Assembly (NCBI GenBank): GCA_051252055.1
Contig: JBPOFD010000006.1
Span: 62,657 to 126,656 of the forward strand
DNA length: 64,000 nt
Origin: Sulfitobacter sp.
GTDB lineage: Bacteria > Pseudomonadota > Alphaproteobacteria > Rhodobacterales > Rhodobacteraceae
Direction: 5' to 3'
Below, in pieces: positions 4,845 to 46,918 of this stretch. The stretch's first letter is position 1, and every line of letters begins with the position of its first letter. The notes under the pieces were generated by a model. That model was not told the origin of the DNA and ran no database searches. It saw only the letters and a program-made list of their open reading frames with translations. The translations under genes and the position numbers were made by a program.

Positions 4845-7091
4845 ATGGCTGAAAGTCACGAAACAGAAAGCCGCAAACTGCTTGGCAGGCTGCGCGATGC
4901 CATGGCATCGGAGTCTGCGGGCCAAGAGCGGCTGGATAAGATCACCACGCTGATTGCGTCCTCTATGGGCTGCGAGGTTTGTTCTATCTATTTGTTTCGA
5001 GACGAAGAAACGCTTGAGCTTTGCGCCACGGAAGGGCTGAACAAAGCGGCGGTTCACGAAACACGCATGAAGCTTGGCGAGGGTTTGGTGGGCCGGGTGG
5101 CGAAACACCGCCGGGTGATCAACACCGCAGATGCCCCCCAAGCGCGCGGTTTCCGGTTTATGCCAGAGACCGGCGAAGAGATTTTTTCCAGCTTCCTTGG
5201 TGTGCCAATCCAGCGTGTGGGCGACCGTTTGGGCGTTTTGGTGGTGCAATCCAAAGCAGCGCGTGAATTTTCAGCAGATGAGATTTATGCGCTTGAAGTG
5301 GTCGCCATGGTTTTGGCCGAGATGACCGAATTGGGTGTGTTTCTGGGCGAGGGCGCGGCCATGTCGGCGCGCCATTCGCAGCCCGTGCTTTTGCCCGGCA
5401 CCGTGGCCCAAGAGGGCGTGGCGGAGGGGCATGTGTGGCTGCATGAGCCGCGTGTGGTTGTCTCCAACCCGATTGCCGATGATCCGCATAAAGAAGCTGT
5501 GCGTTTGGAGGCGGCGGTGGATGATCTGCGCGTGAGCGTTGATCAGTTGTTGACCATGTCCGCCGATAAGGACCAGCGGCAGGTGCTCGAAGCCTACCGG
5601 ATGTTTGCCAATTCCAAGGGCTGGATGCGGCGCATGCAAGAAGACATTGCGCGCGGTCTGTCTGCCGAAGCGGCGGTGGAAAAAGAGCAATCGCTGGCGC
5701 GCACAAGAATTGGGCAGGCGAGCGATCCTTATTTGCGCGAGCGCCTGTCGGATCTGGATGATCTGTCGAACCGTTTGCTGCGCATCCTGACCGGGCAGGG
5801 CAGTGATACCGGGGCAGAGATGCCCGTTGATCCCATCCTTGTGGCCAGCAATATCGGCCCGGCGGAGCTGCTTGAATATGGCCGTTCGCTCAAGGGGATT
5901 GTGCTGGAGAACGGCTCGGTTGGATCGCATGCGGCGATTGTGGCGCGGGCCTTGGCCATTCCGTTGATTGTACATGCGGGGCGCATCACCTCAGAGGCGC
6001 TCAACGGTGATCACATCATGGTGGATGGCGAGCAAGGCGTGGTGCATTTGCGCCCCGATGACACGGTCGCCACAGCGTTCCGCGATAAGATCGCCATGCA
6101 GGCGGCGGCGCAGGAAAGATACGCCTCGATCCGCGACAAACCCGCGATTTCCAAATGCGGCACCACTGTGGGGCTGCATATGAATGCAGGGCTGATGGCT
6201 GATCTGCCATCGCTCGAGGGATCGGGCGCGGAAGGCGTGGGCCTGTTTCGCACTGAGCTGCAATTTCTGGTGCGCAACAAGATGCCCAAACGCTCTGAGC
6301 TGTCGGCGCTTTATGCGCGGGTGCTGGATGCGGCGGGGGGCAAACGTGTGGTGTTTCGCACGCTTGATATCGGGTCGGATAAGGTGCTGCCTTATATGAA
6401 GCCCAATGACGAGCCGAACCCCGCGCTGGGCTGGCGCGCGATCCGGGTGGGGCTGGATAAGCCCGGCGTGATGCAGATGCAGTTGCAGGCGTTGCTGCGG
6501 GCCGCCAATGGGCGCAGCCTGTCGGTGATGTTCCCCTTTGTGGCGCAGTTCGAGGAATATCGCGCGGCGCGCAATGCGTTGACCAAGGCGCTGGCCCGCG
6601 AGGAGCGGCTTGGCCATGCGCTGCCTGCGCGGATTGAAGTGGGGGCGATGCTGGAGACGCCGAGCCTTGCCTTTGCGCCCAATCAATTCTTTGAAGAGGT
6701 CGATTTCCTGTCAATTGGCGGCAATGATCTCAAGCAGTTCTTTTTTGCGGCGGACCGGGAAAATGAGCGGGTGCGGCGGCGCTATGACACGCTCAATGTA
6801 AGTTTCCTGACGTTTTTGGAGCGCATTGTTGAGCGCTGTGAGGCCACGGGCACGCCATTGTCGTTCTGCGGCGAGGATGCGGGGCGCCCCGTAGAGGCTT
6901 TGTGTTTTGCCGCCATTGGCATTCGCAGCCTGTCCATGCGCCCGGCGTCTATTGGTCCGGTGAAAAACCTGATCCGGCGCAGCAACATCGAAGAGGTTCG
7001 CGCCGTGATTTACCAAGCGCGCGACCGCGGAGAGATGTCGGTGCGCGGCGCGGTGATGGAGTATTTGCGCGGCCAGTCGGGGCAGGCGTGA
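4845..7091 (+). CDS. ptsP: phosphoenolpyruvate-protein phosphotransferase EI-Ntr (GAF + PEP-utilising domains)
   Basis: 748 aa with an N-terminal GAF-like region and a C-terminal enzyme I body (GSHAAIVARALAIP..., GTNDL-like SIGGNDL). The lysC-ptsP adjacency is typical of alphaproteobacteria. Confidence 0.95.
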   Translation: MAESHETESRKLLGRLRDAMASESAGQERLDKITTLIASSMGCEVCSIYLFRDEETLELCATEGLNKAAVHETRMKLGEGLVGRVAKHRRVINTADAPQARGFRFMPETGEEIFSSFLGVPIQRVGDRLGVLVVQSKAAREFSADEIYALEVVAMVLAEMTELGVFLGEGAAMSARHSQPVLLPGTVAQEGVAEGHVWLHEPRVVVSNPIADDPHKEAVRLEAAVDDLRVSVDQLLTMSADKDQRQVLEAYRMFANSKGWMRRMQEDIARGLSAEAAVEKEQSLARTRIGQASDPYLRERLSDLDDLSNRLLRILTGQGSDTGAEMPVDPILVASNIGPAELLEYGRSLKGIVLENGSVGSHAAIVARALAIPLIVHAGRITSEALNGDHIMVDGEQGVVHLRPDDTVATAFRDKIAMQAAAQERYASIRDKPAISKCGTTVGLHMNAGLMADLPSLEGSGAEGVGLFRTELQFLVRNKMPKRSELSALYARVLDAAGGKRVVFRTLDIGSDKVLPYMKPNDEPNPALGWRAIRVGLDKPGVMQMQLQALLRAANGRSLSVMFPFVAQFEEYRAARNALTKALAREERLGHALPARIEVGAMLETPSLAFAPNQFFEEVDFLSIGGNDLKQFFFAADRENERVRRRYDTLNVSFLTFLERIVERCEATGTPLSFCGEDAGRPVEALCFAAIGIRSLSMRPASIGPVKNLIRRSNIEEVRAVIYQARDRGEMSVRGAVMEYLRGQSGQA

Positions 7092-7123: not shown

Positions 7124-7221
7124 CGGCCATTTCGGGGCGGCTTCGCAAAGTGTCGTTGCCGCAGAGCCTGTGATGTGGCAAAGGTAATGCGATAGATTCT
7201 GAACGAAAGAGTTTACTTCCC

Positions 7222-7875
7222 ATGACAGATTTTGACGCGCGCCGTGAAGTGATGGTTGATACGCAAATCCGCCCGTCGGATGTGACCAAATTCCCGATCA
7301 TTGAAGCGATGCTGGCTGTGCCGCGCGAGGATTTTGTGCCCGCGGCCCGGCGTGAGGCGGCGTATCTGGGGGAAAACCTGTCGTTGGGGCAGGGGCGGGT
7401 GCTGCTTGATCCACGGACCCTGGCCAAGATGCTGGATGCTTTGGCAATTGGCGCGGATGAGATGGTGCTCGATATTGGCTGTGCTATGGGCTATTCGGCG
7501 GCGGTGATTGCGCGCATGGCCGAGGCGGTGATTGCCGTCGAAGAAGAGCCGTCTTTTGCCGCCGAGGCGCAGGAGGCTTTGGTGGCTGTGGGCGCGGATA
7601 ATGCGGTGGTGCATGTGGGGCCATTGGTTGGGGGCGCGCCGCAGCACGGCCCTTATGATGTGATCATTGTGCAGGGCGGTGTGGGCGTTTGGCCAGTGGC
7701 GCTGAGTGATCAGCTCAAGGATGGCGGGCGCATTGCGGCGCTGTTTATGGAGGGCGCGCTGGGCGAGGTCCGGATTGGCCATAAGCGCGGCGCGGATCTG
7801 CATTGGCGCCGGGCGTTTAATGCCAGCGCGCCGGTTTTGCCGGGCTTTGCCCCTGAAGCTGCGTTTCAATTGTAA
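7222..7875 (+). CDS. pcm: protein-L-isoaspartate O-methyltransferase
   Basis: 217 aa; VPREDFVP and VLDIGCAMGYSAAV SAM-binding motifs. Confidence 0.9.
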   Translation: MTDFDARREVMVDTQIRPSDVTKFPIIEAMLAVPREDFVPAARREAAYLGENLSLGQGRVLLDPRTLAKMLDALAIGADEMVLDIGCAMGYSAAVIARMAEAVIAVEEEPSFAAEAQEALVAVGADNAVVHVGPLVGGAPQHGPYDVIIVQGGVGVWPVALSDQLKDGGRIAALFMEGALGEVRIGHKRGADLHWRRAFNASAPVLPGFAPEAAFQL

Positions 7876-7923
7876 TAAAATGCGCGGGCTTGTGCCCGGC
7901 GCGACGAAACTTTCAAGAGGCGA

Positions 7924-9345
7924 ATGATGACGTTTTTCAACAAAGGCAAAGAGCGGCTGGCGGCTGTTGCGATGGTGGTTGCGGTGGCGATGCCGCAAAG
8001 CGCGTGGTCGGAGACATTGGCCGATGCTTTGGTGGGGGCGTATAATCATTCGGGGCTGCTTGAGCAGAACCGCGCTTTGCTGCGGGCGGCTGATGAGGAT
8101 GTGGCCTTTGCGGCCTCGGCGCTTAAGCCCATCGTGAGCTGGAGCGCCGCCGTGACGCGCAATTTTGGCCATGCGGTGATCGACAGCACGGTTTTGTCGC
8201 GCAGCCAGCTTGAGGAAACCTCGGCGAGTTTGGCGATTTCGGCCAGTTTGCTGCTTTATGATTTTGGCAGCACCGCGTTTCAGGTAGAGGCCGCCAAAGA
8301 GGTGGTTTTGGCCACGCGGCAGCAATTGGTCAGCGTGGAGCAGGGCGTTTTGCTTGATGCGGTATCGGCCTATATGGGCATGATCAGCGCGGCGGAATTT
8401 GTTGATCTGCGGGAAAATAACATTCGGGTTTTGACCCAAGAGCTGCGCGCCGCGCGGGACCGGTTTGAAGTGGGCGAAGTGACGCGCACCGATGTGGCGC
8501 TGGCCGAAGCGCAATTGGCCGAGGCCCGTGCGGGTCTGGCTGTGGCGCAGGGTGATTTGGCTGTGGCACGTGAGGAGTATAAGCGCGCTGTGGGCCGCAC
8601 GCCGGGCCGTTTGGCCGGGCCGCCGAGCCTGCCGCAATTGGCGGGGAATATCGCCAATGCCAAAGCGGCCGCTGTGCGCCGCCACCCCAATATGCTGGCG
8701 GTGCAGCATCAGGTTGCTGCTGCGGATTTGACCATTCGCCGCGCCGAAGCTGCGATGAAACCAACGGTGAAGTTGAACGGGTCTTTGTCCCTGTCGGAGA
8801 GCCTGTCGGACCGGGACGCGACGCGCTCTGGCTCGGTTGGTGTGAGCGTTGGCGGGCCGATTTACCAAGGCGGCGCGCTTTCGTCCTCGGTGCGCCAAGC
8901 GCAGGCGCAGCGCGATGCGTCGCGGGCGAATTTGCATGTGGTGAAGCTCTCGGTGGAGCAGGCGGTGGGCAATGCCTATGCGCAGCTTAGCTCTGCCAAG
9001 GCGGCGCTTGAGGCCTCGGAGCGGCAGATTCGCGCCGCGCGGATTGCCTTTGACGGGGTGCGCGAGGAAGCGACGCTGGGGGCGCGGACCACATTGGACG
9101 TGCTGGATGCGGAGCAATCCTTGCTTGATGCGCAGGCGAACCGGATTTCGGCACGCTCGAACCTTTATATTGCCTCCTACGGTGTGTTGGCGGCCACAGG
9201 CCGGTTGACCGCATTGGACCTGAAATTGCCGGTTCAGCAATACGATCCAGCAGCTTATTACAATTTGGTTAAAGACTCGCCGACCAAAGCATCTAAGCAG
9301 GGGCAGGCGCTTGATAGAGTTTTGAAATCACTTCAGAAAAATTAA
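7924..9345 (+). CDS. tolC: TolC-family outer membrane channel
   Basis: 473 aa with a signal peptide (AVAMPQSAWSE) and two repeated coiled-coil/barrel halves typical of TolC. Confidence 0.9.
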   Translation: MMTFFNKGKERLAAVAMVVAVAMPQSAWSETLADALVGAYNHSGLLEQNRALLRAADEDVAFAASALKPIVSWSAAVTRNFGHAVIDSTVLSRSQLEETSASLAISASLLLYDFGSTAFQVEAAKEVVLATRQQLVSVEQGVLLDAVSAYMGMISAAEFVDLRENNIRVLTQELRAARDRFEVGEVTRTDVALAEAQLAEARAGLAVAQGDLAVAREEYKRAVGRTPGRLAGPPSLPQLAGNIANAKAAAVRRHPNMLAVQHQVAAADLTIRRAEAAMKPTVKLNGSLSLSESLSDRDATRSGSVGVSVGGPIYQGGALSSSVRQAQAQRDASRANLHVVKLSVEQAVGNAYAQLSSAKAALEASERQIRAARIAFDGVREEATLGARTTLDVLDAEQSLLDAQANRISARSNLYIASYGVLAATGRLTALDLKLPVQQYDPAAYYNLVKDSPTKASKQGQALDRVLKSLQKN

Positions 9346-22284: not shown

Positions 22285-23577
22285 ATGGCCCATAAAACCC
22301 CTCCCTTTGCGCCGTTTGAATGGATGATCGCCTGGCGTTATTTGCGCGCGCGCCGTGCCGAAGGCGGGGTGAGCGTGATGACGTGGATCAGCCTGATTGG
22401 CATCACCTTGGCGGTGTTTGCGTTGATCGCGACCCTATCGGTGCGCGCCGGGTTTCGGGCGGAGTTTGTCGACACGATCTTGGGGGCCAATGCCCATGTG
22501 ACGGTCTATAGTTTTGGCACGGTCAGCGAGACCGGATTTGTTGACCGCACCATTCCTGATTACCCCCAGTGGGTGAGCGCGGTTTCGGCGGTGCCCGGTG
22601 TGACCCGTGTGGCGCCTTTGGTGCGCGGGCAGGTGATGGCCAATGCGGGCCAGCAAAACGCGGGCGTGCAGGTTTATGGCATCGCTTTGCCCGATCTCAA
22701 GACCATTCCGCGTATTGCCAACCCCGACACAGCCGAAGGGGATATTGAGGCATTACAAGGCGATAGCGTGATTGCTATTGGGTCGGGCGTGGCGCGGGAA
22801 TTGGGGGTCGGGCTTGGCGATCGGGTCAAGCTGATCTCGCCCAATGGGGTGAAGACCGCCTTTGGCACCAGCCCGCGGATCAAGTCGTATGAGGTGGTTT
22901 ATGTGTTCAGCGCCGGGCGCTATGACATTGACCGCACGCGGGCCTATTTGCCCTTTGAGGAGGCGCAGAGCTTTTTCAACCGCGAAGGGGTGGCGGATGA
23001 GCTTGAGGTGATGATCACTGACCCTGACCATGTGGAGGAGATTGCGCCCGCGATCCAAGTGGCCTCGGGGCCGCTGGGGCAGGTCTGGACGTGGAAAGAC
23101 AGCTCTGCCTCGTTCCTTTCGGCCTTGGATATCGAGGATAACGTGATGTTTGTGATCCTGTCTGTGCTGGTGCTGATTGCGGCGATGAACATCACCTCGG
23201 GGCTGATCATGTTGGTGAAAAACAAGGGGCGCGATATCGGGATTTTGCGCACCATGGGGCTGAGTGAAGGCTCAGTGTTGCGGGTGTTTTTCATCTGCGG
23301 CGCGTTTACCGGGATTATCGGCACGGTGGCTGGGGTGATTTTGGGCTGTCTGTTTGCGGTCTATGTGGACCAGATTTTTGCCGTGGTGAATTACCTGTCG
23401 GGCGGCGATGCGTGGGATCCTTCGATCCGGGGGATCTATGCGCTGCCAGCGAAATTGCAGCTGGTGGATGTGTTGTCGGCGGTGGCTTTGTCGCTGGGGC
23501 TGTCTTTTGTTGTGACCATTTTTCCGGCCCGCCGTGCGGCGCGGATGAACCCGGTGGAGGCGCTGCGCTATGAGTGA
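22285..23577 (+). CDS. lipoprotein-releasing ABC transporter permease (LolC/E family)
   Basis: 430 aa; [15 protein letters not shown]-terminus and FtsX-type C-terminal TMs. Overlaps lolD by 8 nt. Confidence 0.9.
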
Positions 23578-24256
23578 TCCTATTTTGCGCCTGTCGGGCA
23601 TCAGCAAAGCCTATAACGCGGGAAAACCCAATGAAGTGAACGTGTTACGCGGCATTGATCTGGAGTTGCAGCCGGGCGAGATTGTCGCGCTTGTGGCCCC
23701 GTCGGGGGCGGGGAAATCGACGCTGCTGCATATTGCGGGGCTGCTGGACGTGGCCGATAGCGGGCGCGTTGAGATCGGCGGGCAAGACATGAGCGGCAAA
23801 CGCGACCGGCTGCGCACGCAGGTGCGGCGGCAGGATGTGGGGTTCATTTACCAGTTTCACCATCTGCTGCCGGAGTTTTCCGCGTTGGAGAATATCGTGC
23901 TGCCGCAGCTGGCCAATGGCATCGGGCGCGGGCAGGCCGAGCAGCGCGCGCGCGATTTGCTGGAGCAGGTGGGGGTGGCCCCGCGCGCCGCGCACCGACC
24001 CGCAGCCCTGTCGGGCGGCGAGCAGCAGCGGGTGGCGTTTTGCCGGGCGCTGGCTAATGCGCCGCGTCTGTTGCTGGCCGATGAGCCGACGGGAAATCTG
24101 GACCCCAGCACCTCGGAGCAGGTGTTTGCCGCGCTGCTGGAACTGGTGCGCAGCACCGGGCTGTCGGCATTGATTGCGACCCATAATCTGGAGCTCGCGG
24201 GGCGGATGGACCGGCAATTGCGCTTGGAACAGGGCCAGCTAATTACCAGTCTTTAA
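23570..24256 (+). CDS. lolD: lipoprotein-releasing ABC transporter ATPase
   Basis: Walker A GAGKST, signature LSGGEQQR, Walker [10 protein letters not shown]. Confidence 0.92.
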
Positions 24257-36188: not shown

Positions 36189-36689
36189 ATGAGCATTCAA
36201 GACCCGGTAGGGCAGGCCCGCACAGATCAGGGCTTTATGGTGGGCTATCTCGAAGCCCTGTCTTTGGTTGAACGGTTGCACCGGCTCTTGCTGGATGTGA
36301 TCAAGGATGAGTTTGAGCGCGTGGGCGTGTTGGAGATCAACGCGGTTCAGGCGCTCTTGCTGTTCAACATCGGTGATCACGAGGTCACGGCTGGCGAGTT
36401 GAAATCGCGCGGTTATTATCAAGGCAGCAACGTCAGTTATAATCTCAAGAAGCTGGTGGAGATGGGTTATATGCACCATCAACGCTGTGAGATTGACCGC
36501 CGTTCGGTGCGGGTGCGGTTGACGGAAAAGGGCCGCACGGTGCGCGATGTGGTGGCCGGGTTGTTTGCCCGCCACGCAGATGGGCTGGAAAGCCGCGGCG
36601 TGCTGGGGCCCGATGGCATCACCGAGATTACCGGATCGCTGAAACGGATGGAGCGGTATTGGAGCGATCAGATCCGCTATATTTACTAG
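36189..36689 (+). CDS. MarR-like winged-helix transcriptional regulator
   Basis: 166 aa; INAVQALLLFNIGDHEVTAGELK...NVSYNLKKLVEMGYM recognition-helix region. Confidence 0.75.
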   Translation: MSIQDPVGQARTDQGFMVGYLEALSLVERLHRLLLDVIKDEFERVGVLEINAVQALLLFNIGDHEVTAGELKSRGYYQGSNVSYNLKKLVEMGYMHHQRCEIDRRSVRVRLTEKGRTVRDVVAGLFARHADGLESRGVLGPDGITEITGSLKRMERYWSDQIRYIY

Positions 36690-37407
36690 CGGGCAGCTGT
36701 GAGACTTGCAGGCCGTCGGTTTCGCGCAGCAGCTTTGTGGCCATGGCATTGGCGTAATCATCAAACCCCTGCGCGGTGATCACAAATGCGCCGGGGCCAA
36801 AGATGACCTCCTGCGTGAAATAGTCGGACAGATCGCCAATCGCATCAAGGCCGATTGCCCCGGCGGGCGGGCGCAGCGCCCCGATCACCAGCGCATTGAG
36901 CGTCAGGGCGGGGGGGGCGCGGGCCTCAAGCACCTCGCGCACCTCGCGGGGGCGGGGGCCAAGGTTGGATTTGCCATCGCCGGAAATATCAAGCGTGTGC
37001 TGCCAGCAACCGGGCTGCTGGGCCAGATAGGCAGCACCCAGCGCCATGGCCCCGCCAAGCGCGGTGCCCGGCGTGCTGGGGACGCGGCGGGTTTGTCGCA
37101 GGGTTTCAGCCAGCGCTTCGAGCGCGGCAGGTCCGGTGATCTCGGTCCAGGGCAGCAAGAGCCGCTCGTCGCCCGGGCCGGACCATTCATAAACCAAGAT
37201 GCGCAGGGGGGCATCGGGCAGATCCAAAAGCGCGGCGCGGACATCGGGGCGCAGCAGGGCCAGCGCCAGCCCGTCGAGCTGCAAGCGATATTCACGCGCA
37301 TCAACCGAGCCGGAAACATCGAGCCCCAAGGCCAAGGCTTGGCGACATTGCGCGGCGAGCGGCGCAGCGGCCAAGAGGCCAAAGGCGAGGGCGGCGGCGC
37401 GGATCAT
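36628..37407 (-). CDS. DUF1194 (vWA-like) secreted protein
   Basis: Trimmed to MIRAAALAFGLLAAAPLAAQ (signal peptide); LDVSGSVD MIDAS-like motif. The 3' end overlaps the convergent gene by 62 nt. Confidence 0.8.
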   Translation of the reverse strand: MIRAAALAFGLLAAAPLAAQCRQALALGLDVSGSVDAREYRLQLDGLALALLRPDVRAALLDLPDAPLRILVYEWSGPGDERLLLPWTEITGPAALEALAETLRQTRRVPSTPGTALGGAMALGAAYLAQQPGCWQHTLDISGDGKSNLGPRPREVREVLEARAPPALTLNALVIGALRPPAGAIGLDAIGDLSDYFTQEVIFGPGAFVITAQGFDDYANAMATKLLRETDGLQVSQLPASKYSGSDRSNTAPSVSAIR

Positions 37408-37527
37408 GACGCGGGGCGTGCAGGCGCGCGCGCTGGCGCGGCGGGCAGGCGGGGTGCCGCAGGGCCAAAAGGCCCCGCGATCAGACAAAGCAGGGCGATG
37501 GGCCATGCGGATCTGCCTGAGGTGATT

Positions 37528-37962
37528 TTACCAATGGCCCGTGTTTTCCATGCTGGCCCAAGGTTCTTGCGGCGCAAGCGCCTCGCCTTCTTGCAGCAGT
37601 TCAACGGAGATATTGTCGGGGCTGCGCACAAAGGCCATGTAGCCATCGCGCGGCGGGCGGTTGATGGTCACGCCATTGTCCTGCAGGAATTGGCAGGTTT
37701 CGTAGATGTTTTCGACGGAAAACGCCAAATGGCCAAAATGGCGGCTGTCGCTGGGCAGGGCATCATCGCCATCCCAATTATAGGTCAGTTCCACATCAGC
37801 ATGGCCGTCGGTCATGCCGGGGGGGCAAAGATAGACCAGCGTGAAACGGCCTTGCTCGCTCTCGTAACGGCGGCGCTCCACCAACCCGAGCAGGGTGTAA
37901 AAGGCAATCGAGGCGTCCAGATCTTTGACGCGCACCATTGTGTGCAGGAATTTAATGGGCAT
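37528..37962 (-). CDS. gloA: lactoylglutathione lyase (glyoxalase I, VOC family)
   Basis: Trimmed to MPIKFLHTMVRVKDLDASIAFYT...; FGHLAF and RSPDNISVELLQ motifs. Confidence 0.88.
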   Translation of the reverse strand: MPIKFLHTMVRVKDLDASIAFYTLLGLVERRRYESEQGRFTLVYLCPPGMTDGHADVELTYNWDGDDALPSDSRHFGHLAFSVENIYETCQFLQDNGVTINRPPRDGYMAFVRSPDNISVELLQEGEALAPQEPWASMENTGHW

Positions 37963-38103: not shown

Positions 38104-39519
38104 TTAAAAGGCGGAGCGCACCCCGAGGCTGATGCCAAAGCGGTTCACATCAAACAGCCCGATATTGCTGTCGGTGGAGGAGGCCGAAACCGTCACGGCG
38201 GGGTTAAACCCATAGTAATCAATCTGGTGGAAAGTGGCGGTGACATCGGCAAAAATCCGGGTGTCTTCGCGCCCATCCGGGTCATGCACCGAATATTCAT
38301 AATCGCGCAGCGCCGCGCCCAGACCAAATTGCAGCCCCGCGCCAAACACCGGTTTGGCCTTGGCATAGATCGCCCGCAGCTCTAGCTGGTTATATTCAGC
38401 GTCGCGGTTGTTATCCGAGATCTGCCGCGTCACGGCGGCCTCGAAAAACAGATTATCGCCGGTTTTCAACTGGCGAGTCAGGCTGGTGGCAAATTCGAGC
38501 CGCTCTGTATCGGAAGTGCGTTGGCCGTTTTGCACTTCGCCCAGCAAGGAGAATTGCAGCCGATCACGCGGGTTGATCCGGTAGGATTGCGAGACCCGCC
38601 CGCGCAGAAAAGACGCATAGCGCGCCCCGCCATAGAAGCTTTGGCCCAGATCGGCGTTGAGGGAAAATTCGCCGCGCCCGTCATGGGTGATTTGTTTGTA
38701 GCCATAGCCGAGGCTGAGGCTGCCATAGGCAAAATCATCGCCGGAGACATCGGGGGCATCATCTTCGGCGCTGCTGGAGAGCACGAAGCTGCGGTAGCTG
38801 CCCAAGATGTGCAGGTCATGGGCGGTGGTTTCGGTCTGGTTGAAGCGGTAACGGCTGTGCAGGGCTGCGCCATATTCCAGCCCCGAGAGGGCGCGGGCCG
38901 CGCCGCCGAGCACATATTCTACAGGCTCGCCAAAGAGCAGTTCGGAATAGACGTAATTGAGTTGGGAGGTCTCGCGCGCCGAGCCATTGTTGATGTTGGA
39001 ATTGGGCGCGAGGGTGAAAGAAACTTGGGTGTTCCAAGGGTTTTGCTGGCGCACATAGTTAAAATCGCGGGCCGCTTTGCCCTTGAGTGCCGGGGTGGGG
39101 GCGTGTTGGACCGCGCGGCGCAGCCAGAGCTGGGCGCGGGTGCGTTTGCCATCCGAGGAGAGCGCTTGGGCCATCACAAGGGCTGCGGCATATTTGTCGG
39201 GATCGCTTTGCGACAGGGTCCAGCCGCGCCGAGCGGTTTTGAGGGCGGCGTCATATTGCCCAAGGTCGCGCAGGGCGCGGGCGCGCAGCAGCAGCGCTGT
39301 CATGTCGCCAGCGTCGCGGGCCAAAAGCGCATCGGCAATCGCCAGCGCCTGCGCGGGGTTGCGCCCTTGCAGGCTTTGCATGCCAAGCGTGCCAAGCTGG
39401 GCTGCGGTGAGATTGGTTTGGGCAAAACCGGGGGCTGCAAAAGTGATGGCCAATGGCGCGCACAGCAGAGCTGCGGCGCTAAAGGCGATCAGTTTTTTGT
39501 GCAATTTCAGCAGGTTCAT
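38104..39519 (-). CDS. Slam-like outer membrane protein (N-terminal TPR + DUF560-type beta-barrel)
   Basis: Trimmed to MNLLKLHKKLIAFSAALLCAPLAITFAAPGFAQ (signal peptide). A helical TPR-like region of about 150 aa is followed by an alternating beta-strand region that ends ...GISLGVRSAF (aromatic C-terminus). Lies 10 nt downstream of a lipoprotein gene. Confidence 0.7.
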   Translation of the reverse strand: MNLLKLHKKLIAFSAAALLCAPLAITFAAPGFAQTNLTAAQLGTLGMQSLQGRNPAQALAIADALLARDAGDMTALLLRARALRDLGQYDAALKTARRGWTLSQSDPDKYAAALVMAQALSSDGKRTRAQLWLRRAVQHAPTPALKGKAARDFNYVRQQNPWNTQVSFTLAPNSNINNGSARETSQLNYVYSELLFGEPVEYVLGGAARALSGLEYGAALHSRYRFNQTETTAHDLHILGSYRSFVLSSSAEDDAPDVSGDDFAYGSLSLGYGYKQITHDGRGEFSLNADLGQSFYGGARYASFLRGRVSQSYRINPRDRLQFSLLGEVQNGQRTSDTERLEFATSLTRQLKTGDNLFFEAAVTRQISDNNRDAEYNQLELRAIYAKAKPVFGAGLQFGLGAALRDYEYSVHDPDGREDTRIFADVTATFHQIDYYGFNPAVTVSASSTDSNIGLFDVNRFGISLGVRSAF

Positions 39520-39529
39520 CGCCTGTCCC

Positions 39530-40594
39530 TTAGCGGTAAACGATGAAGCCGCTGGTATCGCGCACGGTGACGCTGTCGAATTCGGCGTTGTTTTCCAGCA
39601 CCATGACGCCAACAATTTCATCAGGGTCATCGCCGGAAACGATGGCGTAGTAATTGCCCGATTCATATTCGACGGGATCGCCTGCGTCATTGGTGAAGGA
39701 GCTGTCGAGCACGCCGATCAACTCGCCATTGTCATCGAGCACGCCGGGGCCGACGGTGAAGACGGCGGCGGGCAGGCTGGTGAGGCTGGCTTCGTTTTTC
39801 GTGTTGATCCGGCCAAGCACATCATTGGTGATGTTTTCGCCGTCGATGTCATAGATTTCGCGGTTTGTGAGATTGCCGCGTACCGCATCGCCGCGCGAGC
39901 CGGTGGAGCTGTTGAAATCGTCAAAATCGATGGCAATTGTCATGTTGCCAGTGGAATATTGCACGCCAGCGGCCCCGTTAAAGTCGCGGATACCGGCGGC
40001 TTGGCCTTGGAAAATCGCCTGACCTTCGGTGGGCAGGGTTACGCTGCCGCTGCGTTGATAGACAAAACCGCCAAAGCCGTAATCGCGGTAGGCCCCGGTG
40101 CGCACGATGGCGAATTGCGTCGCGGGGTTGCCATCGGCGTCTTTGTTGGTGCTCACGCCGTAGATCGCGCGGTGGCTGAATTGGTTAATCTGCGCTTGGG
40201 TCAACGAGTCTTCGAAGACATTGTCGCCCTCATAGACCGCATATTGACCGTTCGCGAGGCTGCTGACGGCTGTGCCGCGTGAATAGGTGTTGCCGCCATC
40301 GAAGCCGAGGTTGTCGACCGAGAAAGTGTCGGTGTCGCCATCATAGGAGATCGACGAGGCGTAGCCATTGCCGAAATATTCGCTGTCGGTGCTGCCGGAG
40401 GCTTCGGAGCGGAAAAGCCCGGAACCTGCGGAGGGGGATTCGGTGCCCGGTGGCAATTCGCCATCGCGTGAGATGCCTGTGGTGTCATCGCCAGCACTGG
40501 CATCGGTTTCATCGGTGGTGTCTTCGAACGGGTTGCCGCCGCTACAGCTTGCAAGGAACGCGCAAAGCACCAGGCCAGTTGCCTTAAATTTCAT
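39530..40594 (-). CDS. TbpB/fHbp-like surface lipoprotein candidate
   Basis: Lipobox LCAFLASCSG, a disordered acidic linker, then the pattern LPTEGQAIFQGQAAGIR...GNMTIAIDFDDFN...G.L, as in the handle/barrel domains of Slam-dependent lipoproteins. Ends ...DTSGFIVYR. Confidence 0.65.
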   Translation of the reverse strand: MKFKATGLVLCAFLASCSGGNPFEDTTDETDASAGDDTTGISRDGELPPGTESPSAGSGLFRSEASGSTDSEYFGNGYASSISYDGDTDTFSVDNLGFDGGNTYSRGTAVSSLANGQYAVYEGDNVFEDSLTQAQINQFSHRAIYGVSTNKDADGNPATQFAIVRTGAYRDYGFGGFVYQRSGSVTLPTEGQAIFQGQAAGIRDFNGAAGVQYSTGNMTIAIDFDDFNSSTGSRGDAVRGNLTNREIYDIDGENITNDVLGRINTKNEASLTSLPAAVFTVGPGVLDDNGELIGVLDSSFTNDAGDPVEYESGNYYAIVSGDDPDEIVGVMVLENNAEFDSVTVRDTSGFIVYR

Positions 40595-40824
40595 TTTTGC
40601 CTGCCTCTGAATAATGTTTTTTCTTACAATCCATGTCGAATACGCTCTTTGTCAACTGAACCGGGGTGTGGGCGCGCGATTGGTTCGCGATCATGGCCAA
40701 AAAACAATACCGGATATGGCGGTTCCTGCACCCGGTTTGCGCAGATATAGTGGGCAACGAATCCATATATGGCGCGTCAAACCTTAGGCGCGCCGGGGCC
40801 GTAAAAACAAAGACCGGGGTCAAG

Positions 40825-41658
40825 ATGCAGCAATATCATGAAGCGTTACGAGCGATATTGGAGATGGGCGAGGAATCGAGTGACCGCACGGGCACCGGGA
40901 CGCTTTCCTATTTCGGGTTGCAGTCGCGGTATCGGCTGGCGGATGGGTTTCCATTGGTCACGACCAAAAAGCTGCATCTGAAATCGATCATTCATGAGCT
41001 TTTGTGGTTCCTCTCTGGCGATACCAACATACGGTATTTAAAGGAAAATGGCGTCTCGATCTGGGATGAATGGGCCGATGAGAAGGGCGATCTTGGGCCG
41101 GTTTACGGGCATCAATGGCGCAGCTTTCCGGCGCTGGAGCCGACGGGGCAGATGCTGGATGGCGAGCCGCTGTTTACCGGGCGCGGCATTGATCAGATTG
41201 CCCAGTTGGTGGAGATGATCAAAACGGCGCCGGACAGTCGGCGGTTGATTGTCTCGGCGTGGAACCCCGCCGATGTGCCGCGCATGGCGCTGCCGCCTTG
41301 CCATACCATGTGGCAGGTGCGGGTGCTGAACGGGAAATTGCATTTGCAGCTTTACCAACGCTCGGCGGATATGTTTCTGGGCGTGCCGTTCAACATTGCG
41401 TCTTATGCGTTGCTTCAGGTGATGTTGGCGCATGTGACGGGGTACGAGCCGGGTGATTTTGTGCACACGTTGGGTGATGCGCATATTTATTCAAATCATA
41501 TGGATCAAGTGGCGTTGCAGCTGTCGCGGACGCCAAAACCGCTGCCTCGTTTGCGGATCAAACGCGATGTGGCGTCGATTTTTGACTTTAAATTCGAGGA
41601 TTTCGAGATCACCGGCTATGAGCCTGATCCCGCGATCCGCGCAGCTGTGGCGGTCTGA
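40825..41658 (+). CDS. thyA: thymidylate synthase
   Basis: Trimmed to [23 protein letters not shown]...; the PPCH active-site Cys is present. Confidence 0.97.
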
Positions 41659-41660
41659 AC

Positions 41661-42140
41661 ATGATTACATTGGTTGTTGCGCGGGCGAAAAACGGGGCGA
41701 TTGGGCGGGATGGGACCATCCCGTGGCAGGTGCCGGAAGATTTGAAAGCGTTTCAACGCGAAACGCTGGGCGGCGCGTTGATTATGGGGCGCAACACCTG
41801 GGACAGCCTGCCGGTGAAACCGCTGTCGCGGCGGCTCAATATCGTGGTGTCGTCGCGGGAAGATGCGGCAGATATTGTAGTGCCGTCGGTAGCAGCGGGT
41901 GCCGCGTTGGCCTCGGCGCAGGGCTATGACCGGATTTACGGCATTGGCGGCGCGGGGATTTACCAAGAGATGATGCCGCTGGCGCATCGGCTGCTGATCT
42001 CTGAGGTTGATATGGACGTGCCTGATGCGGATACGTTTTTCCCACCGTTTGACGCGGCGGAATGGCAGGTGATCTCGGAGCGGGTGCTGCGGGCGGAGGG
42101 GCCGGGGTGCTTGGTGCGGGAATATCTGCGGCTGCGGTAG
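41661..42140 (+). CDS. folA: dihydrofolate reductase
   Basis: MITLVVARAKNGAIGRDGTIPWQVPEDLKAFQRETLGGALIMGRNTW. Confidence 0.93.
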   Translation: MITLVVARAKNGAIGRDGTIPWQVPEDLKAFQRETLGGALIMGRNTWDSLPVKPLSRRLNIVVSSREDAADIVVPSVAAGAALASAQGYDRIYGIGGAGIYQEMMPLAHRLLISEVDMDVPDADTFFPPFDAAEWQVISERVLRAEGPGCLVREYLRLR

Positions 42141-43884: not shown

Positions 43885-44229
43885 ATGAAAAGCGAGACTG
43901 AGGCGCAGGGGCGGCTGTTTGGGCTGAAAAATTGCGACACATGCCGCAAGGCGCTGAAAGCGGTGCCGGGGCTGGCGCTGGTGGATGTGCGCGCCGATGG
44001 GGTGCCGCCGGAGGTGATGGCGCGGGCGCTGGCGGAATTTGGCGCGGCTTTAGTGAATACGCGGTCGACCACGTGGCGGGGCTTGGATGAGGCGCAGCGG
44101 GCGCGGCCCGCTGCGGAACTTTTGGCAGAGCATCCGGCGCTGATGAAGCGGCCTTTGATCCTTGCCCAGTCGCAGATGTTTCTGGGCTGGAGCAAGGAGG
44201 TGCAGGCGCAGGTTGAGGCTCTGGTTTAA
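43885..44229 (+). CDS. ArsC/Spx/MgsR-family thioredoxin-fold protein
   Basis: LFGLKNCDTCRKALK motif; 114 aa. The start is uncertain. Confidence 0.8.
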   Translation: MKSETEAQGRLFGLKNCDTCRKALKAVPGLALVDVRADGVPPEVMARALAEFGAALVNTRSTTWRGLDEAQRARPAAELLAEHPALMKRPLILAQSQMFLGWSKEVQAQVEALV

Positions 44230-44780
44230 CCGATGGATTTGGCGCGCAAGGCCCGGTCGAGGGACAGGGGGCCTGCGCCTTTGATCACAAGGACGAGCAG
44301 CAAGAAAACCCAGAATGCGCGCTGGTCGAGGATGATCGCGTCTGGGAAACGGTCAAACCATGCGCCGAGGACTTTGGGGTCTTCGAAACCGTTGTGGCCG
44401 TAGAGATCTGTGAGCGATTGCAAGGTGATAAAGCCGATCATGCCAAGCGCGGAGAGGCGGGTCAGCAGGCCGAGCACCACCAGCGCGGGCAGGATGAATT
44501 CGCCCCATGTGCCGCCCATGACGACCAGCGTGTGAAAGATGCTGAGCTGGTCTGTATCATAGCCTGCGGCCTCCATCGCGCGGGGGAAAATCTGCGCGTA
44601 GGCCCCCACGGAGGGGGAGAAAATGCCGGCAAAGCCTTCGCCAAGTTTGGTCAGGCCAGAGACCCAGAAATAGATCAGCAACACGCCCGCAAAGATCAGC
44701 CGGGCGAGGGTGGGCAGGAGCCAATCGCTGCGGTCGAGGGCATCGGCGAGGCGGCGGTAGGCGGAGAGAAGTGCGTTCAT
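44226..44780 (-). CDS. DoxX-family membrane protein (last gene of the bufferin-like cluster)
   Basis: 184 aa, about 4 TM, with DoxX-like hydrophobic pattern. Co-directional with the DUF2063 gene, 24 nt downstream of it. Confidence 0.8.
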   Translation of the reverse strand: MNALLSAYRRLADALDRSDWLLPTLARLIFAGVLLIYFWVSGLTKLGEGFAGIFSPSVGAYAQIFPRAMEAAGYDTDQLSIFHTLVVMGGTWGEFILPALVVLGLLTRLSALGMIGFITLQSLTDLYGHNGFEDPKVLGAWFDRFPDAIILDQRAFWVFLLLVLVIKGAGPLSLDRALRAKSIG

Positions 44781-44804
44781 GGTCAGTCCTTTATGGGCCG
44801 GTGT

Positions 44805-45560
44805 TTAACCAGCGGAAGGGGGCGCGCAAAACGCCCCGGCGGCGAGGGTCAGGCCAAGGGCCTGTGCCAGATCAAAATCGGGGGCAGCTTGGGCGGCAGC
44901 CTCGCAGGCGCGCTGCAGCGGCGCGCCGCCGCGCAGGGTTTCGAGCCATGTGGCCGCGCCCGAAGGGAGGGCGGCAGGCATTGGGTCAAACTCGGGGCGG
45001 GTGATGAGGATGTCTTGGGGAACGGGGGCGGGTTTGGGCGCATCCGCTTGGGTGTTGAAGCGCCAGATGTCAAAAAGCGGCCAGTCGGAGCGCAGGATAA
45101 GCGTAGCCGGGGCCAGCGGCAAATGCAGCGCCATGAGCGCCTCTGGGGGCAGGGCCGCGAGGCTGGCGGCGTCGAACGGGGCGGCATCAGCGGCATGGTA
45201 GGAGCGGCGCAGGGCCAGATCGAGGGCCGCGCAATCGGGCAGGTAACCCAGATGGGCCAGCGGCGCAAACCCATGTAAAAATTCAGGGAAATCAGCGCCG
45301 TAATGCATCATCAGCGGCGATTTTGGCGGGTGGGCGCGCACAAAGATCGGCATCAGGCTGTCGAAGTTTTGCGGCCCGATGATTTTGCGCACCAGCGGGA
45401 AGGCGGTTTTCATCGCTTCGATTAACGATGTGGTGACATTGTTGCGATACACATCATAGCGGCGCCCGGCGGGGCGGCCTGCGCCGTCGATCAGCCCGTC
45501 GGGAACGGGGCTTTGCGCGTCGAGCAGGGCGGCGCGGAATTGCGATTGCGACAGGGTCAT
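44805..45560 (-). CDS. DUF2063 protein (MbnC/BufC-like partner of the MNIO enzyme)
   Basis: FRAALLD...[34 protein letters not shown] is the DUF2063 N-terminal signature. Its start overlaps the DUF692 stop by 4 nt. Confidence 0.8.
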
Positions 45561-46450
45561 GCGGGGGCACCTGCGGGCAGGGCGATGCGGCTGAGCGCGG
45601 CGGCGGCGCGGCTGGCCTCATCGCGTAGAACAGGCCAATCGGGCACGTCATTGTCCCATTCCACCAGCACCGGGCGCGGGCCGGAGCGGGCGAGGGTGTA
45701 ATCAAGCAGGGCCCAGACGGGATCAACCACCGCTTTGCCGTGGCTGTCGATGAGCAGGGGCGCGCCGTGATCATCGCTGTCTTCGTCGTGGCCGCCCACG
45801 TGAATCTCGCCCACGGCATCAAGCGGGAAGGCGTCGATATAGGCCTGCGGCGAGAGGCCAAGATTGGTGGCGGAAATGAACACATTGTTCACATCCAGCA
45901 AGAGACCACAGGAGGTTTTGTGGGTAAGTTCGGAAAGAAAGTCCGTTTCGGACAAGCTGGAATCGGCAAAGGCGAGGTAGCTGGAGGGGTTTTCCAGCAG
46001 CATTTGGCGGCCCAGCACGTCTTGGACCTGGGCGATGTGATCCGCGACGCGGGCCAAGGTGGCGGGGGTGTAGGGCAGGGGCAGCAGATCATTCATGAAC
46101 TCGGCCCCATGGGTGGACCATGCCAGATGTTCGGAAAAGCTGGCTGGATTGCTGCGGTCGATCAGGGTTTTGAGGCGGGCAAGATGCGCCGTATCAAGCG
46201 GGGTTTCACCGCCGATGGACAGGCCAACCCCATGCACGGAAAGCGCAAATTCGGCGCTGAGGGCGGCAAGCTGGGCCAGCGGTCTGCCGCCATCGCCCAT
46301 GTAGTTTTCCGCATGCACTTCGATCCAGCGCACCGGGCCGGGAGCGTCGCTAAGCTGTTGGAAATGTTGGGGTTTATAGCCTACCCCCGGCGCATGTGGC
46401 AGGGATGTGAGGCGGGGAGGATGCTGTGTCATCGCTGGCCCTATGTCCAT
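45557..46450 (-). CDS. DUF692/UPF0276 multinuclear non-heme iron oxidase (MbnB/BufB-like)
   Basis: GVGYKPQHF..., [29 protein letters not shown] and HVGGH motifs. An alternative start is ATG 46432. Confidence 0.88.
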
Positions 46451-46581
46451 TTGGAGATGTCCGTTTGGAACGGTGCGTTTTGAAAGCTGTGGCGGCAGGC
46501 GCGGGGGCCTGAGATGCCCTGTTCGGCTTGGCGCGCAGGCCCGAGGATCGGAGCGTGGCCAGAGCGGGACCGGAGCTGTGG

Positions 46582-46606
46582 CCGGGCAGGCGCGGGGCCT
46601 GCCCGG
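46582..46606 (-). terminator. perfect 10-bp hairpin 10 nt after the precursor gene stop (attenuator/stabiliser candidate)
   Basis: CCGGGCAGGC-N5-GCCTGCCCGG read directly; no U-tract. It lies in a 165-nt spacer between the precursor and enzyme genes. Confidence 0.55.
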
Positions 46607-46615
46607 AGCCGCAAT

Positions 46616-46918
46616 TTATGCGGGCAGATCGCGGTCGAGCGCGGCCAGAGAGCCTTTGCGCGCGGTGCCGTCTGCCATGGCGGGCAGGTCCATGGTTTCG
46701 CAGGAGCCTGCGTCAACCAATGTCCAAGCGTTGCCTTGGTAATCTGTGACCGATGTGCCCGCGCAGGTGGTGCCGGGACCGGCGGCGCAATCATTGGCGC
46801 CTGCCAGGGAAACGCCGTAGCATTTTTCTTTGGACGCGGCCTGCACGGTGGTGGCTTGGGCGGCCAGAGCAGCGGCAACGGCCCCCGCGATTGCGAATGT
46901 TTTAACTGTTGTCGACAT
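46616..46918 (-). CDS. DUF2282 Cys-rich secreted peptide (bufferin/BufA-like RiPP precursor)
   Basis: 100 aa; Sec signal ...AAQATTVQA|AS; core [27 protein letters not shown]...GSCE with Cys33/44/52/73; AAGGAG RBS upstream. Confidence 0.8.

Follow-up and report, generated by a model that had tools for sequence, protein, structure and literature searches.

A 64,000-nucleotide (nt) stretch of Sulfitobacter sp. DNA (GenBank assembly GCA_051252055.1, contig JBPOFD010000006.1, positions 62,657 to 126,656 of the forward strand), referred to here as the window, carries two adjacent genes for a predicted lipoprotein and a surface lipoprotein assembly modifier (Slam), the outer membrane protein (OMP) of a type 11 secretion system (T11SS). 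In this uncultured Sulfitobacter-like roseobacter, the two genes probably make up a bicistronic T11SS (Slam) unit that displays the lipoprotein on the cell surface and is the orthologue of SPO1272-SPO1271 in Ruegeria pomeroyi DSS-3. The unit was recognized from its gene structure, domain architectures, obligatory adjacency, covariation and conserved promoter. Roseobacters rank with the most abundant and most thoroughly studied heterotrophs of the sea, and we know of no work on how they place lipoproteins on their surface; to our knowledge, the T11SS that have been tested all come from animal-associated bacteria. The parts of the pair, in window coordinates, are the following.

39530..40594, minus strand: predicted surface lipoprotein gene, 354 amino acids, SPO1272-type T11SS cargo (open reading frame, ORF; 798 homologues)
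40544..40594, minus strand: signal peptide and lipobox L-A-S-C, residues 1 to 17, with Cys17 as the lipidated residue (direct reading of the sequence)
40361..40543, minus strand: disordered acidic tether, residues 18 to 78 (predicted local distance difference test score, pLDDT, below 50; composition G11 S10 D7 T7 E6)
40040..40360, minus strand: beta-rich N-terminal (handle/effector) domain, residues 79 to 185 (AlphaFold2 strands between 81 and 179, pLDDT about 50 to 75)
39533..40039, minus strand: eight-stranded beta-barrel at the C terminus, residues 186 to 354, the presumed Slam-recognition domain (AlphaFold2 model)
39520..39529, minus strand: 10-nt intercistronic spacer GGGACAGGCG, purine-rich and Shine-Dalgarno-like, between the lipoprotein TAA stop and the Slam ATG at 39519
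38104..39519, minus strand: Slam/T11SS OMP gene, 471 amino acids (PF04575 SlipAM; 423 homologues)
39040..39417, minus strand: periplasmic tetratricopeptide repeat (TPR) domain of Slam, residues 35 to 160 (TPR_19, TPR_14; seven AlphaFold2 helices)
38107..39039, minus strand: 14-stranded DUF560 barrel of Slam, residues 161 to 471 (AlphaFold2, pLDDT mostly above 90)

Both ORFs are intact, with G+C contents at third codon positions (GC3) of 0.70 to 0.71, similar to those of neighboring genes, and the 354- and 471-amino-acid products were also called independently on three seawater-metagenome contigs of identical sequence. The ORFs and gene calls thus bear out the gene pair as it had been described from the letters alone (the sequence-only reading), with Slam 10 nt downstream. 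A longer ORF reaching 39690 was rejected as the Slam gene, since all 32 aligned homologues keep Met1 of MNLLKL.

Using a Slam profile to scan one genome per species, 228 relatives were found; the locus counts given here refer to the best 80 of these 228, which are those most similar to the query Slam and come from about 20 genera. A lipoprotein homologue lay directly upstream of Slam on the same strand in all 80 loci, with its ORF intact in all but two, and the profile search found one Slam and one lipoprotein gene per locus. With Slam starts picked heuristically, the gap between the two genes had a median of 2 nt, and about 36 of the pairs overlapped, mostly by 1 or 4 nt, an arrangement that suggests translational coupling. 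Across the 66 complete loci, the pairwise divergences of lipoprotein and Slam were correlated (r = 0.77), and the partial correlation was still 0.70 once the divergence of the glyoxalase and MarR genes flanking the pair had been regressed out (partial Mantel p ~0.001), compared with a partial r of 0.22 between lipoprotein and glyoxalase. Both proteins evolve fast (mean p-distance 0.49 for the lipoprotein and 0.53 for Slam), while the flanking genes are slow (0.20 and 0.17); these rates and the covariation fit an interacting, surface-related pair. With 798 lipoprotein homologues, 423 Slam homologues and adjacency at 80 of 80 loci, the pair is conserved far beyond chance.

Defects were seen in individual loci: L052 carries in-frame stops in both genes and L079 (the draft isolate genome of Lacimonas salitolerans) a single one in its lipoprotein gene; the Slam gene of L058 is frameshifted, and in L068 the lipobox Cys is replaced by Phe. 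Metagenome-assembled genomes are the source of L052, L058 and L068, and the defects in all of these loci, L079 included, could be sequencing errors or real decay. The idea that the two ORFs are chance frames or a decaying, functionless remnant, for which the three of 80 assemblies with an in-frame stop or frameshift in one or both genes and the one with the Phe substitution might speak, has negligible probability, being refuted by conservation: both window ORFs are intact, full-length homologues with many invariant residues number in the hundreds, GC3 is like that of the neighbors, and the structure models are confident.

The N terminus of the lipoprotein reads MKFKATGLVLCAFLASC and includes the lipobox L-A-S-C; Cys17 was invariant in 35 of 35 aligned homologues from many genera, and an equivalent signal peptide and lipobox were present in 74 of the 76 related loci whose contigs include the N terminus. 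In the AlphaFold2 model, residues 1 to 78 are disordered except for a signal-peptide helix at residues 7 to 15. The tether holds a conserved linear motif, LPPGTxSP...FRSE (residues 47 to 64), of which P48, G50, T51, P54, R62 and E64 are invariant in the alignment, and is otherwise variable. The C-terminal barrel is modeled with strands at residues 192 to 204, 212 to 223, 238 to 248, 277 to 280, 291 to 301, 307 to 320, 326 to 339 and 342 to 353, at pLDDT values mostly between 77 and 97, and one of its loops contains a helix (residues 256 to 267). The motifs VTLPTEGQAIFQGQAAG / LPTEGQAIFQGQAAG, TIAIDFDDFN and the C-terminal GFIVYR were read in the translation. The LASC lipobox, disordered acidic linker, TIAIDFDDFN and GFIVYR on which the sequence-only reading had relied are therefore all present in the sequence or in the model, and in the model the C terminus takes the form of the eight-stranded barrel that it had proposed. 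The mature protein is strongly acidic (53 Asp plus Glu against 16 Lys plus Arg), lacks Cys and Trp, and has a single His that is not invariant. The window comes from an uncultured seawater roseobacter, and the closest homologue of its lipoprotein is 67% identical.

The N-domain is on average as well conserved as the barrel (mean conservation 0.72 vs 0.68), and the most conserved stretch of the protein, FAIVRTGAYxxYGFGGFxYQR (residues 161 to 181), lies within it, with values of 0.93 and 0.87 in segments between residues 161 and 180. In TbpB and fHbp the opposite holds, as the lobes that bind ligands are hypervariable; as an alignment-based observation, the pattern argues for a conserved ligand.

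Using Foldseek to compare the lipoprotein model with the Protein Data Bank (PDB), all 27 matches at E ≤ 0.001 were to fHbp, TbpB or NHBA, which are known Slam-dependent surface lipoproteins. The best match was meningococcal fHbp (E = 1.2e-6, probability 1.00), TbpB was matched with an E value of 1.4e-4, and the C-terminal barrel of NHBA was matched with a template modeling score (TMt) of 0.63. At the level of sequence, no Pfam match to the lipoprotein was found even at E ≤ 1, including TbpB_B_D (PF01298) and FHBP_C (PF08794), NCBIfam gave no match at all, and searches of PDB chains with the single sequence and with a 35-sequence profile returned only a spurious signal-peptide match. Among the 35 family members, 18 had subthreshold FHBP_C matches (best E value 1.4e-4) and one had a subthreshold TbpB_B_D match (0.0074). 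At HMMER sensitivity, the family is compact and is not joined to the large TbpB and fHbp families. The "TbpB/fHbp-like" label that had been given to the lipoprotein holds for its predicted fold, and not for membership of the corresponding Pfam families, whose thresholds it does not reach.

The N terminus of Slam, MNLLKLHKKLIAFSAAALLCAPLAITFAAPGFA-Q, reads by eye as a hydrophobic signal peptidase I (SPI) signal. PF04575 (SlipAM/DUF560) matched residues 162 to 458 with 33 bits against a cut-off of 22 (E = 6.1e-8; profile positions 1 to 275 of 288), so that the DUF560 assignment proposed earlier stands above the gathering score; TPR_19 (33.3 bits, cut-off 25) and TPR_14 (25.4 bits, cut-off 23.5) matched at residues 53 to 108, and NCBIfam gave subthreshold TPR matches only. 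For many of the 423 homologues NCBI uses the name "surface lipoprotein assembly modifier", and most have a precomputed PF04575 match. An AlphaFold2 model built on 32 homologues (mean pLDDT 85) has seven helices at residues 39 to 158 (pLDDT 89 to 96), followed by 14 long strands between residues 162 and 469 and the C terminus ...VRSAF. The order of signal peptide, TPR region and barrel ending in VRSAF is thus as the sequence-only reading gave it, except that the helical region spans about 120 residues (39 to 158) and not about 150. The PNSNINNGS loop (residues 172 to 180) is nearly invariant, with conservation of 0.97 across residues 171 to 180.

The best Foldseek matches of the Slam model were BcsC and PelB (E = 3.5e-12 to 8e-9), which likewise have a periplasmic TPR region fused to an outer membrane barrel. 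BcsC differs in its 16-stranded barrel, its far longer TPR array and its location in cellulose operons, whereas Slam has 14 strands and a DUF560 barrel; no polysaccharide synthesis genes were found near the Slam pair, and the likeness appears from the models to be one of architecture only. The nearest barrel-only folds were the 14-stranded OmpG, CymA and FadL (TMt 0.55 to 0.68). An unrelated porin or a BamA-type barrel, the outcome that would have spoken against a Slam, was not found, and the model agrees with the expected TPR domain plus 14-stranded barrel. A terminator-like site at 38125-38112 was set aside: it is weak, it overlaps the Slam stop codon, and nine such sites occurred in the scanned region against 5.2 expected. 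A stable hairpin 3' of the Slam stop was seen in 64 of 78 loci, a figure counted without a shuffle control and not relied on here.

Loci of this kind have been described previously. In the network of Grossman et al. (2021; PMC8406197), DUF560 proteins fell into ten clusters, in nine of which organisms from water and soil predominate, and "marine cluster 3" was found by Grossman, Mucci and Goodrich-Blair (2025, Microb Genom 11:001406; PMC12282271) to be almost wholly from Roseobacteraceae/Rhodobacteraceae. The latter study reported a syntenic locus in 11 strains, consisting of the T11SS OMP, a thymidylate synthase, a lactoylglutathione lyase and at least one DUF1194 gene, and in 10 of the 11 strains a lipoprotein with a signal peptidase II (SPII) signal, 282 to 375 amino acids long, with an AlphaFold-predicted C-terminal eight-stranded barrel. 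The window lipoprotein is 54% identical to SPO1272 over its full length (E = 1e-128), and the window Slam and SPO1271 share 46% identity across the available 370 residues (E = 7e-104). The identity to SPO1271, together with a gene-for-gene neighborhood of thymidylate synthase, glyoxalase and DUF1194, places the window Slam in cluster 3. In the R. pomeroyi locus, as in the window, the order is cargo, OMP, glyoxalase and DUF1194 with thymidylate synthase divergent upstream, and genes for aspartate aminotransferase, an XRE-type helix-turn-helix (HTH) protein, Sdh5/CptB, dihydrofolate reductase (DHFR) and a cold-shock protein are nearby. In the window, glyoxalase and DUF1194 follow the pair on the same strand, then come a convergent MarR gene, Sdh5/CptB, the XRE-type HTH gene and aspartate aminotransferase; on the other side, the cold-shock gene and a P450 gene lie beyond the divergent thyA-folA. 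The co-occurring families given in PMC12282271 match those of this neighborhood. The two cargo proteins also share an architecture of SPII signal, beta N-domain and eight-stranded barrel with a helix in one loop. The published loci differ in having the flavin-dependent thyX, whereas the window has the classical thyA-folA (40864-42140, plus strand; PF00303, PF00186); most of the 80 loci have thyX at this place, and about eight have thyA-folA. Judged by sequence, the pair is already known in kind, as an orthologue of a locus described in silico in 2025. The novelty implied by the sequence-only reading was overstated, and the discovery is incremental because both the locus and its interpretation are already published (PMC12282271). 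A literature search on SPO1270-1273 found thyX mentioned in passing only and, for the pair, neither proteomic nor transcriptomic nor fitness data, and no paper was found that links "surface lipoprotein assembly modifier" with Roseobacter.

The same study sorted the cluster 3 cargo into two structural groups, and the window lipoprotein, with its helix in a barrel loop, falls in the first. To the second cargo type, such as that of Sulfitobacter sp. NAS-14.1, it is not significantly similar. The NAS-14.1 protein, NAS141_17234, has a signal peptide and first residues like those of SPO1272-type proteins in close relatives (e.g., P0032), with no significant similarity beyond them. The presence in cluster 3 of at least two types of cargo with unrelated mature sequences suggests that at one locus the mature domain has been replaced in a cassette-like manner. 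As to Pseudooceanicola marinus LMG 23705, the main text of PMC12282271 has it without cargo, and the supplement lists PSM7751_01665 (342 amino acids) and gives Silicimonas algicola as the strain without. An ORF at 5869-6897 of locus L071 translates to the listed PSM7751_01665 sequence and is 45% identical to the window lipoprotein; the P. marinus cargo was dropped as a newly found gene, since the supplement lists it and only the text has a slip.

Barrel-type cargo was reported to co-occur "only rarely" with cluster 3 OMPs, with TbpBBD in 8 of 145 loci, and cargo loss, location elsewhere or cargo below detection were left as options, with a changed function also raised (PMC12282271). In the present set the lipoprotein was always adjacent and its family never reached a Pfam cut-off; as judged from gene content, the best 80 of the 228 loci therefore show the apparent rarity of cargo to be a detection artefact in the SPO1271-like part of cluster 3. 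The "additional DUF560 domains" given for 102 of 145 loci in PMC12282271 were not recovered here, where the profile search gives one Slam per locus.

A predicted promoter precedes the lipoprotein gene.

40617..40655, minus strand: predicted lipoprotein-Slam promoter (TTGACA 40655-40650, 18 nt, GATTGT 40631-40626, A-run 40620-40617)

TTGAC was present in 64 of 66 nonredundant loci at a median of 66 nt before the lipoprotein ATG and was followed at fixed offsets by a conserved G (+22), A (+25), TGT (+27 to +29) and AAAA (+35 to +38). The consensus reads as a sigma-70-type promoter, CGTTGACA-N18-GAtTGT, and the A-run at 40620-40617 is the likely start site, which would give a leader of about 25 to 30 nt. 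No conserved operator was seen within this core promoter in the 66-locus alignment.

In the proposed mechanism, the lipoprotein would be exported by Sec and lipidated at Cys17, after which Lol would carry it to the inner leaflet of the outer membrane. Slam, with its periplasmic TPR domain and 14-stranded DUF560 barrel, would recognize the C-terminal eight-stranded barrel of the cargo and move the lipoprotein to the cell surface, where it would stay tethered by its flexible acidic linker of about 60 residues with the conserved N-domain facing outward. We infer these steps, translocation included, from Neisseria Slam1/2 and other T11SS.

Several points weigh against this reading. The cluster 3 T11SS proteins are computational predictions (PMC12282271), and no solved Slam structure was found by PDB sequence search or among the fold matches. 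The lipoprotein lies below all curated cargo-domain thresholds, so that its link to known cargo rests on the predicted fold: the top FHBP_C score, with the most divergent family members included, was 22.8 bits against a cut-off of 28.1, and a HMMER family profile run against 1.84 billion representative proteins reached 320 clusters only and did not reach TbpB or fHbp. The N-domain is modeled at moderate confidence only. The covariation of the two proteins could stem from a shared high evolutionary rate or joint transfer and not from physical interaction. The promoter is deduced from a consensus only, and no RNA-seq runs holding the locus were found, as it occurs in seawater metagenome DNA runs only.

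Downstream of the pair lie two further genes on the same strand.

37528..37962, minus strand: glyoxalase I-type gene, 144 amino acids (PF00903)
36628..37506, minus strand: DUF1194/von Willebrand factor A (vWA)-like secreted protein (PF06707, E = 1.2e-58; likely start MIRAAALAF... at 37407)

The glyoxalase gene follows Slam in 78 of 80 loci with 67 to 90% identity, and this very high conservation marks it as a housekeeping neighbor and not a member of the same operon. It has conserved boxes of its own (CTCGACA at about -62 and TGCTAGG at about -42) and is probably transcribed separately from the Slam pair, which weakens the published speculation linking the T11SS to nickel or aldehyde metabolism. 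DUF1194 occurs in 70 of 80 loci in one to three copies, two being the commonest number; the window has one. The window DUF1194 protein has a DVSGS resembling a metal ion-dependent adhesion site (MIDAS) just past its signal peptide, no barrel domain and no lipobox (Gln at -1). Facing the DUF1194 gene is a convergent and very conserved MarR-family gene (36189-36689, plus strand), 71 to 89% identical from genus to genus; the 3' ends of the two ORFs have about 60 nt in common, and the MarR gene shares no promoter with the Slam cluster.

It is possible that the DUF1194 protein is a partner or an alternative cargo. In the stronger form of this idea, the cluster 3 DUF560 protein would serve DUF1194/vWA proteins or act as a plain channel, with the lipoprotein remaining at the outer membrane's periplasmic side. 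No domain co-occurs with cluster 3 OMPs more often than DUF1194 (102 of 145 loci), which was put forward as an alternative cargo or partner in PMC12282271; among the loci examined here that have it, two or three copies are often present, and the lipoprotein falls below the Pfam thresholds for known cargo domains. The lipoprotein is nevertheless linked more tightly to Slam than DUF1194 is (80 of 80 vs 70 of 80 loci), is directly adjacent to it and covaries strongly with it, whereas DUF1194 is separated from Slam by a glyoxalase gene with promoter boxes of its own. It is also the lipoprotein that has the predicted fold defining T11SS cargo, while the window DUF1194 protein has neither barrel nor lipobox. 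We therefore consider it unlikely that Slam serves DUF1194 and leaves the lipoprotein in the periplasm.

The pair could instead be the lipoprotein half of a bipartite TonB-dependent receptor, as in TbpB/TbpA or HpuA/HpuB, handing iron, heme or a cofactor to a distant transporter. The lipoprotein fold resembles that of TbpB, the well-studied TbpB-like proteins are all known to work in this way, and cobalamin, molybdopterin or nickel are speculated upon in the cluster 3 discussion of PMC12282271. However, none of the genes scanned across the 64-kb window encodes a TonB-dependent receptor, TonB/ExbBD or a protein for heme, iron or siderophore uptake, and such co-occurrence is rare in cluster 3 (PMC12282271). 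The best fold matches are fHbp and NHBA, which bind ligands without import; the mature lipoprotein, without Cys or Trp and with one non-invariant His, and a core promoter in which no conserved operator was seen, also speak against such a role. A receptor half of this kind is very unlikely.

A surface-displayed cargo of Slam, the reading preferred here, resembles known systems to different degrees. The Neisseria meningitidis Slam1/Slam2 proteins (T11SS cluster 1, with TbpB, LbpB, fHbp, HpuA and NHBA as cargo) have the same DUF560 barrel and N-terminal TPR domain; their cargo likewise has a flexible tether, a handle domain of beta structure and, at the C terminus, an eight-stranded barrel, and the cargo gene adjoins the translocon gene. 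In contrast to the Neisseria cargo, the window protein lies below the TbpB_B_D and FHBP_C thresholds, its N-domain is not hypervariable, its locus is single-copy and syntenic in 80 of 80 loci with no TonB-dependent partner nearby, and its roseobacter hosts are free-living or algal-associated marine bacteria. HphA/HsmA of Acinetobacter, HrpC/HrpB of Xenorhabdus, NilC/NilB and Pls/TepS share a cargo with a C-terminal eight-stranded barrel encoded beside an OMP gene. Hemophilins differ in that they are soluble, secreted heme binders, whereas the window cargo has a lipobox; no hemophilin was among the 50 Foldseek matches listed for the lipoprotein, and nothing found points to heme binding.

Conservation of the whole protein across genera, a syntenic single-copy locus and the lack of a nearby TonB-dependent receptor together point to housekeeping surface binding of a conserved ligand. 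We favor a conserved non-host ligand that would be bound without direct TonB-coupled import, comparable to fHbp and NHBA and unlike TbpB, over host-variable iron piracy; host glycoproteins are implausible as the ligand of a seawater roseobacter lipoprotein.

Between the pair and the divergent thymidylate synthase gene, the intergenic region holds further conserved blocks.

40699..40764, no strand assigned: conserved intergenic blocks (GGATTCG 40764-40758; CACTATATCTG 40752-40742; palindrome ACCGCCATATCCGGT 40723-40709; T-run 40708-40699)

These blocks stand at a fixed distance from the lipoprotein ATG in 36 to 44 of the 66 loci, compared with a shuffle maximum of 6 to 18: GGATTCG at about -174, CACTATATCTG at about -160, and an ACCGC-N5-GCGGT palindrome at about -126, followed by the T-run. 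Symmetric variants of the palindrome occur among the loci (e.g., ACCTC..GAGGT). The divergent gene in most loci is thyX, which starts at about -195 from the lipoprotein ATG, and on the thyX strand the blocks read as an A-tract, a palindrome centered at about -41.5, a TATAGT -10 box and a leader. They are therefore best read as a promoter and operator, placed back to back, that belong to the divergent thymidylate synthase gene. The palindrome, which precedes the predicted lipoprotein start by about 96 nt, could possibly serve both divergent promoters. The blocks are kept in the window despite the replacement of thyX by thyA-folA, whose ATG is 270 nt away. A small RNA (sRNA), attenuator or riboswitch on the lipoprotein strand was rejected, as the CTATAT box has no -35 element to match it and the stem counts no more than 5 bp; no RNA family was matched anywhere in the window at Rfam gathering thresholds, so the blocks are not a known riboswitch or sRNA. 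A likeness to NrdR boxes, which did not align in register with the blocks, is not claimed. As a speculation, which we hold to be quite unlikely, the lipoprotein could be a core, vertically inherited roseobacter receptor for a conserved non-host ligand, independent of TonB, with its expression linked to thymidylate through the shared palindrome, and could bind extracellular DNA, nucleotides or a folate- or flavin-type cofactor (compare NHBA, which binds DNA and heparin).

Elsewhere in the window, a MacB_PCD plus FtsX permease with an adjacent ABC ATPase (22285-24256, plus strand) is LolC/E- and LolD-like; such a pair is the machinery that the cargo would need before Slam, and its co-location is probably coincidental. 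No transposase was found among the genes scanned at the 80 loci. About 4 kb from the Slam pair lies a bufferin-type operon of the ribosomally synthesized and post-translationally modified peptide (RiPP) class (44226-46918, minus strand), seemingly of a known metal-binding peptide kind and unrelated to the pair, with these parts.

46616-46918, minus strand: precursor, 100 amino acids, with a signal peptide and four to five Cys
45557-46450, minus strand: MbnB/TglH/ChrH (DUF692)
44805-45560, minus strand: DUF2063
44226-44780, minus strand: DoxX

Two long minus-strand ORFs, at 333-1616 (428 amino acids) and 7216-9240 (675 amino acids), have a GC3 of 0.69 and no Pfam match at E ≤ 0.001 and are putative genes.

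For the family, the data on the SPO1271-like group run opposite to the idea that cluster 3 has lost its cargo or changed its function: the cargo gene is always present, the two proteins covary, and the cargo is missed by Pfam. The pair would offer a clean and easily testable model both for Slam function outside pathogens and for capture from seawater by a conserved lipoprotein. If the lipoprotein did prove to be a core receptor tied to thymidylate synthesis, this would give type 11 secretion its first physiological role in marine bacteria that live freely.

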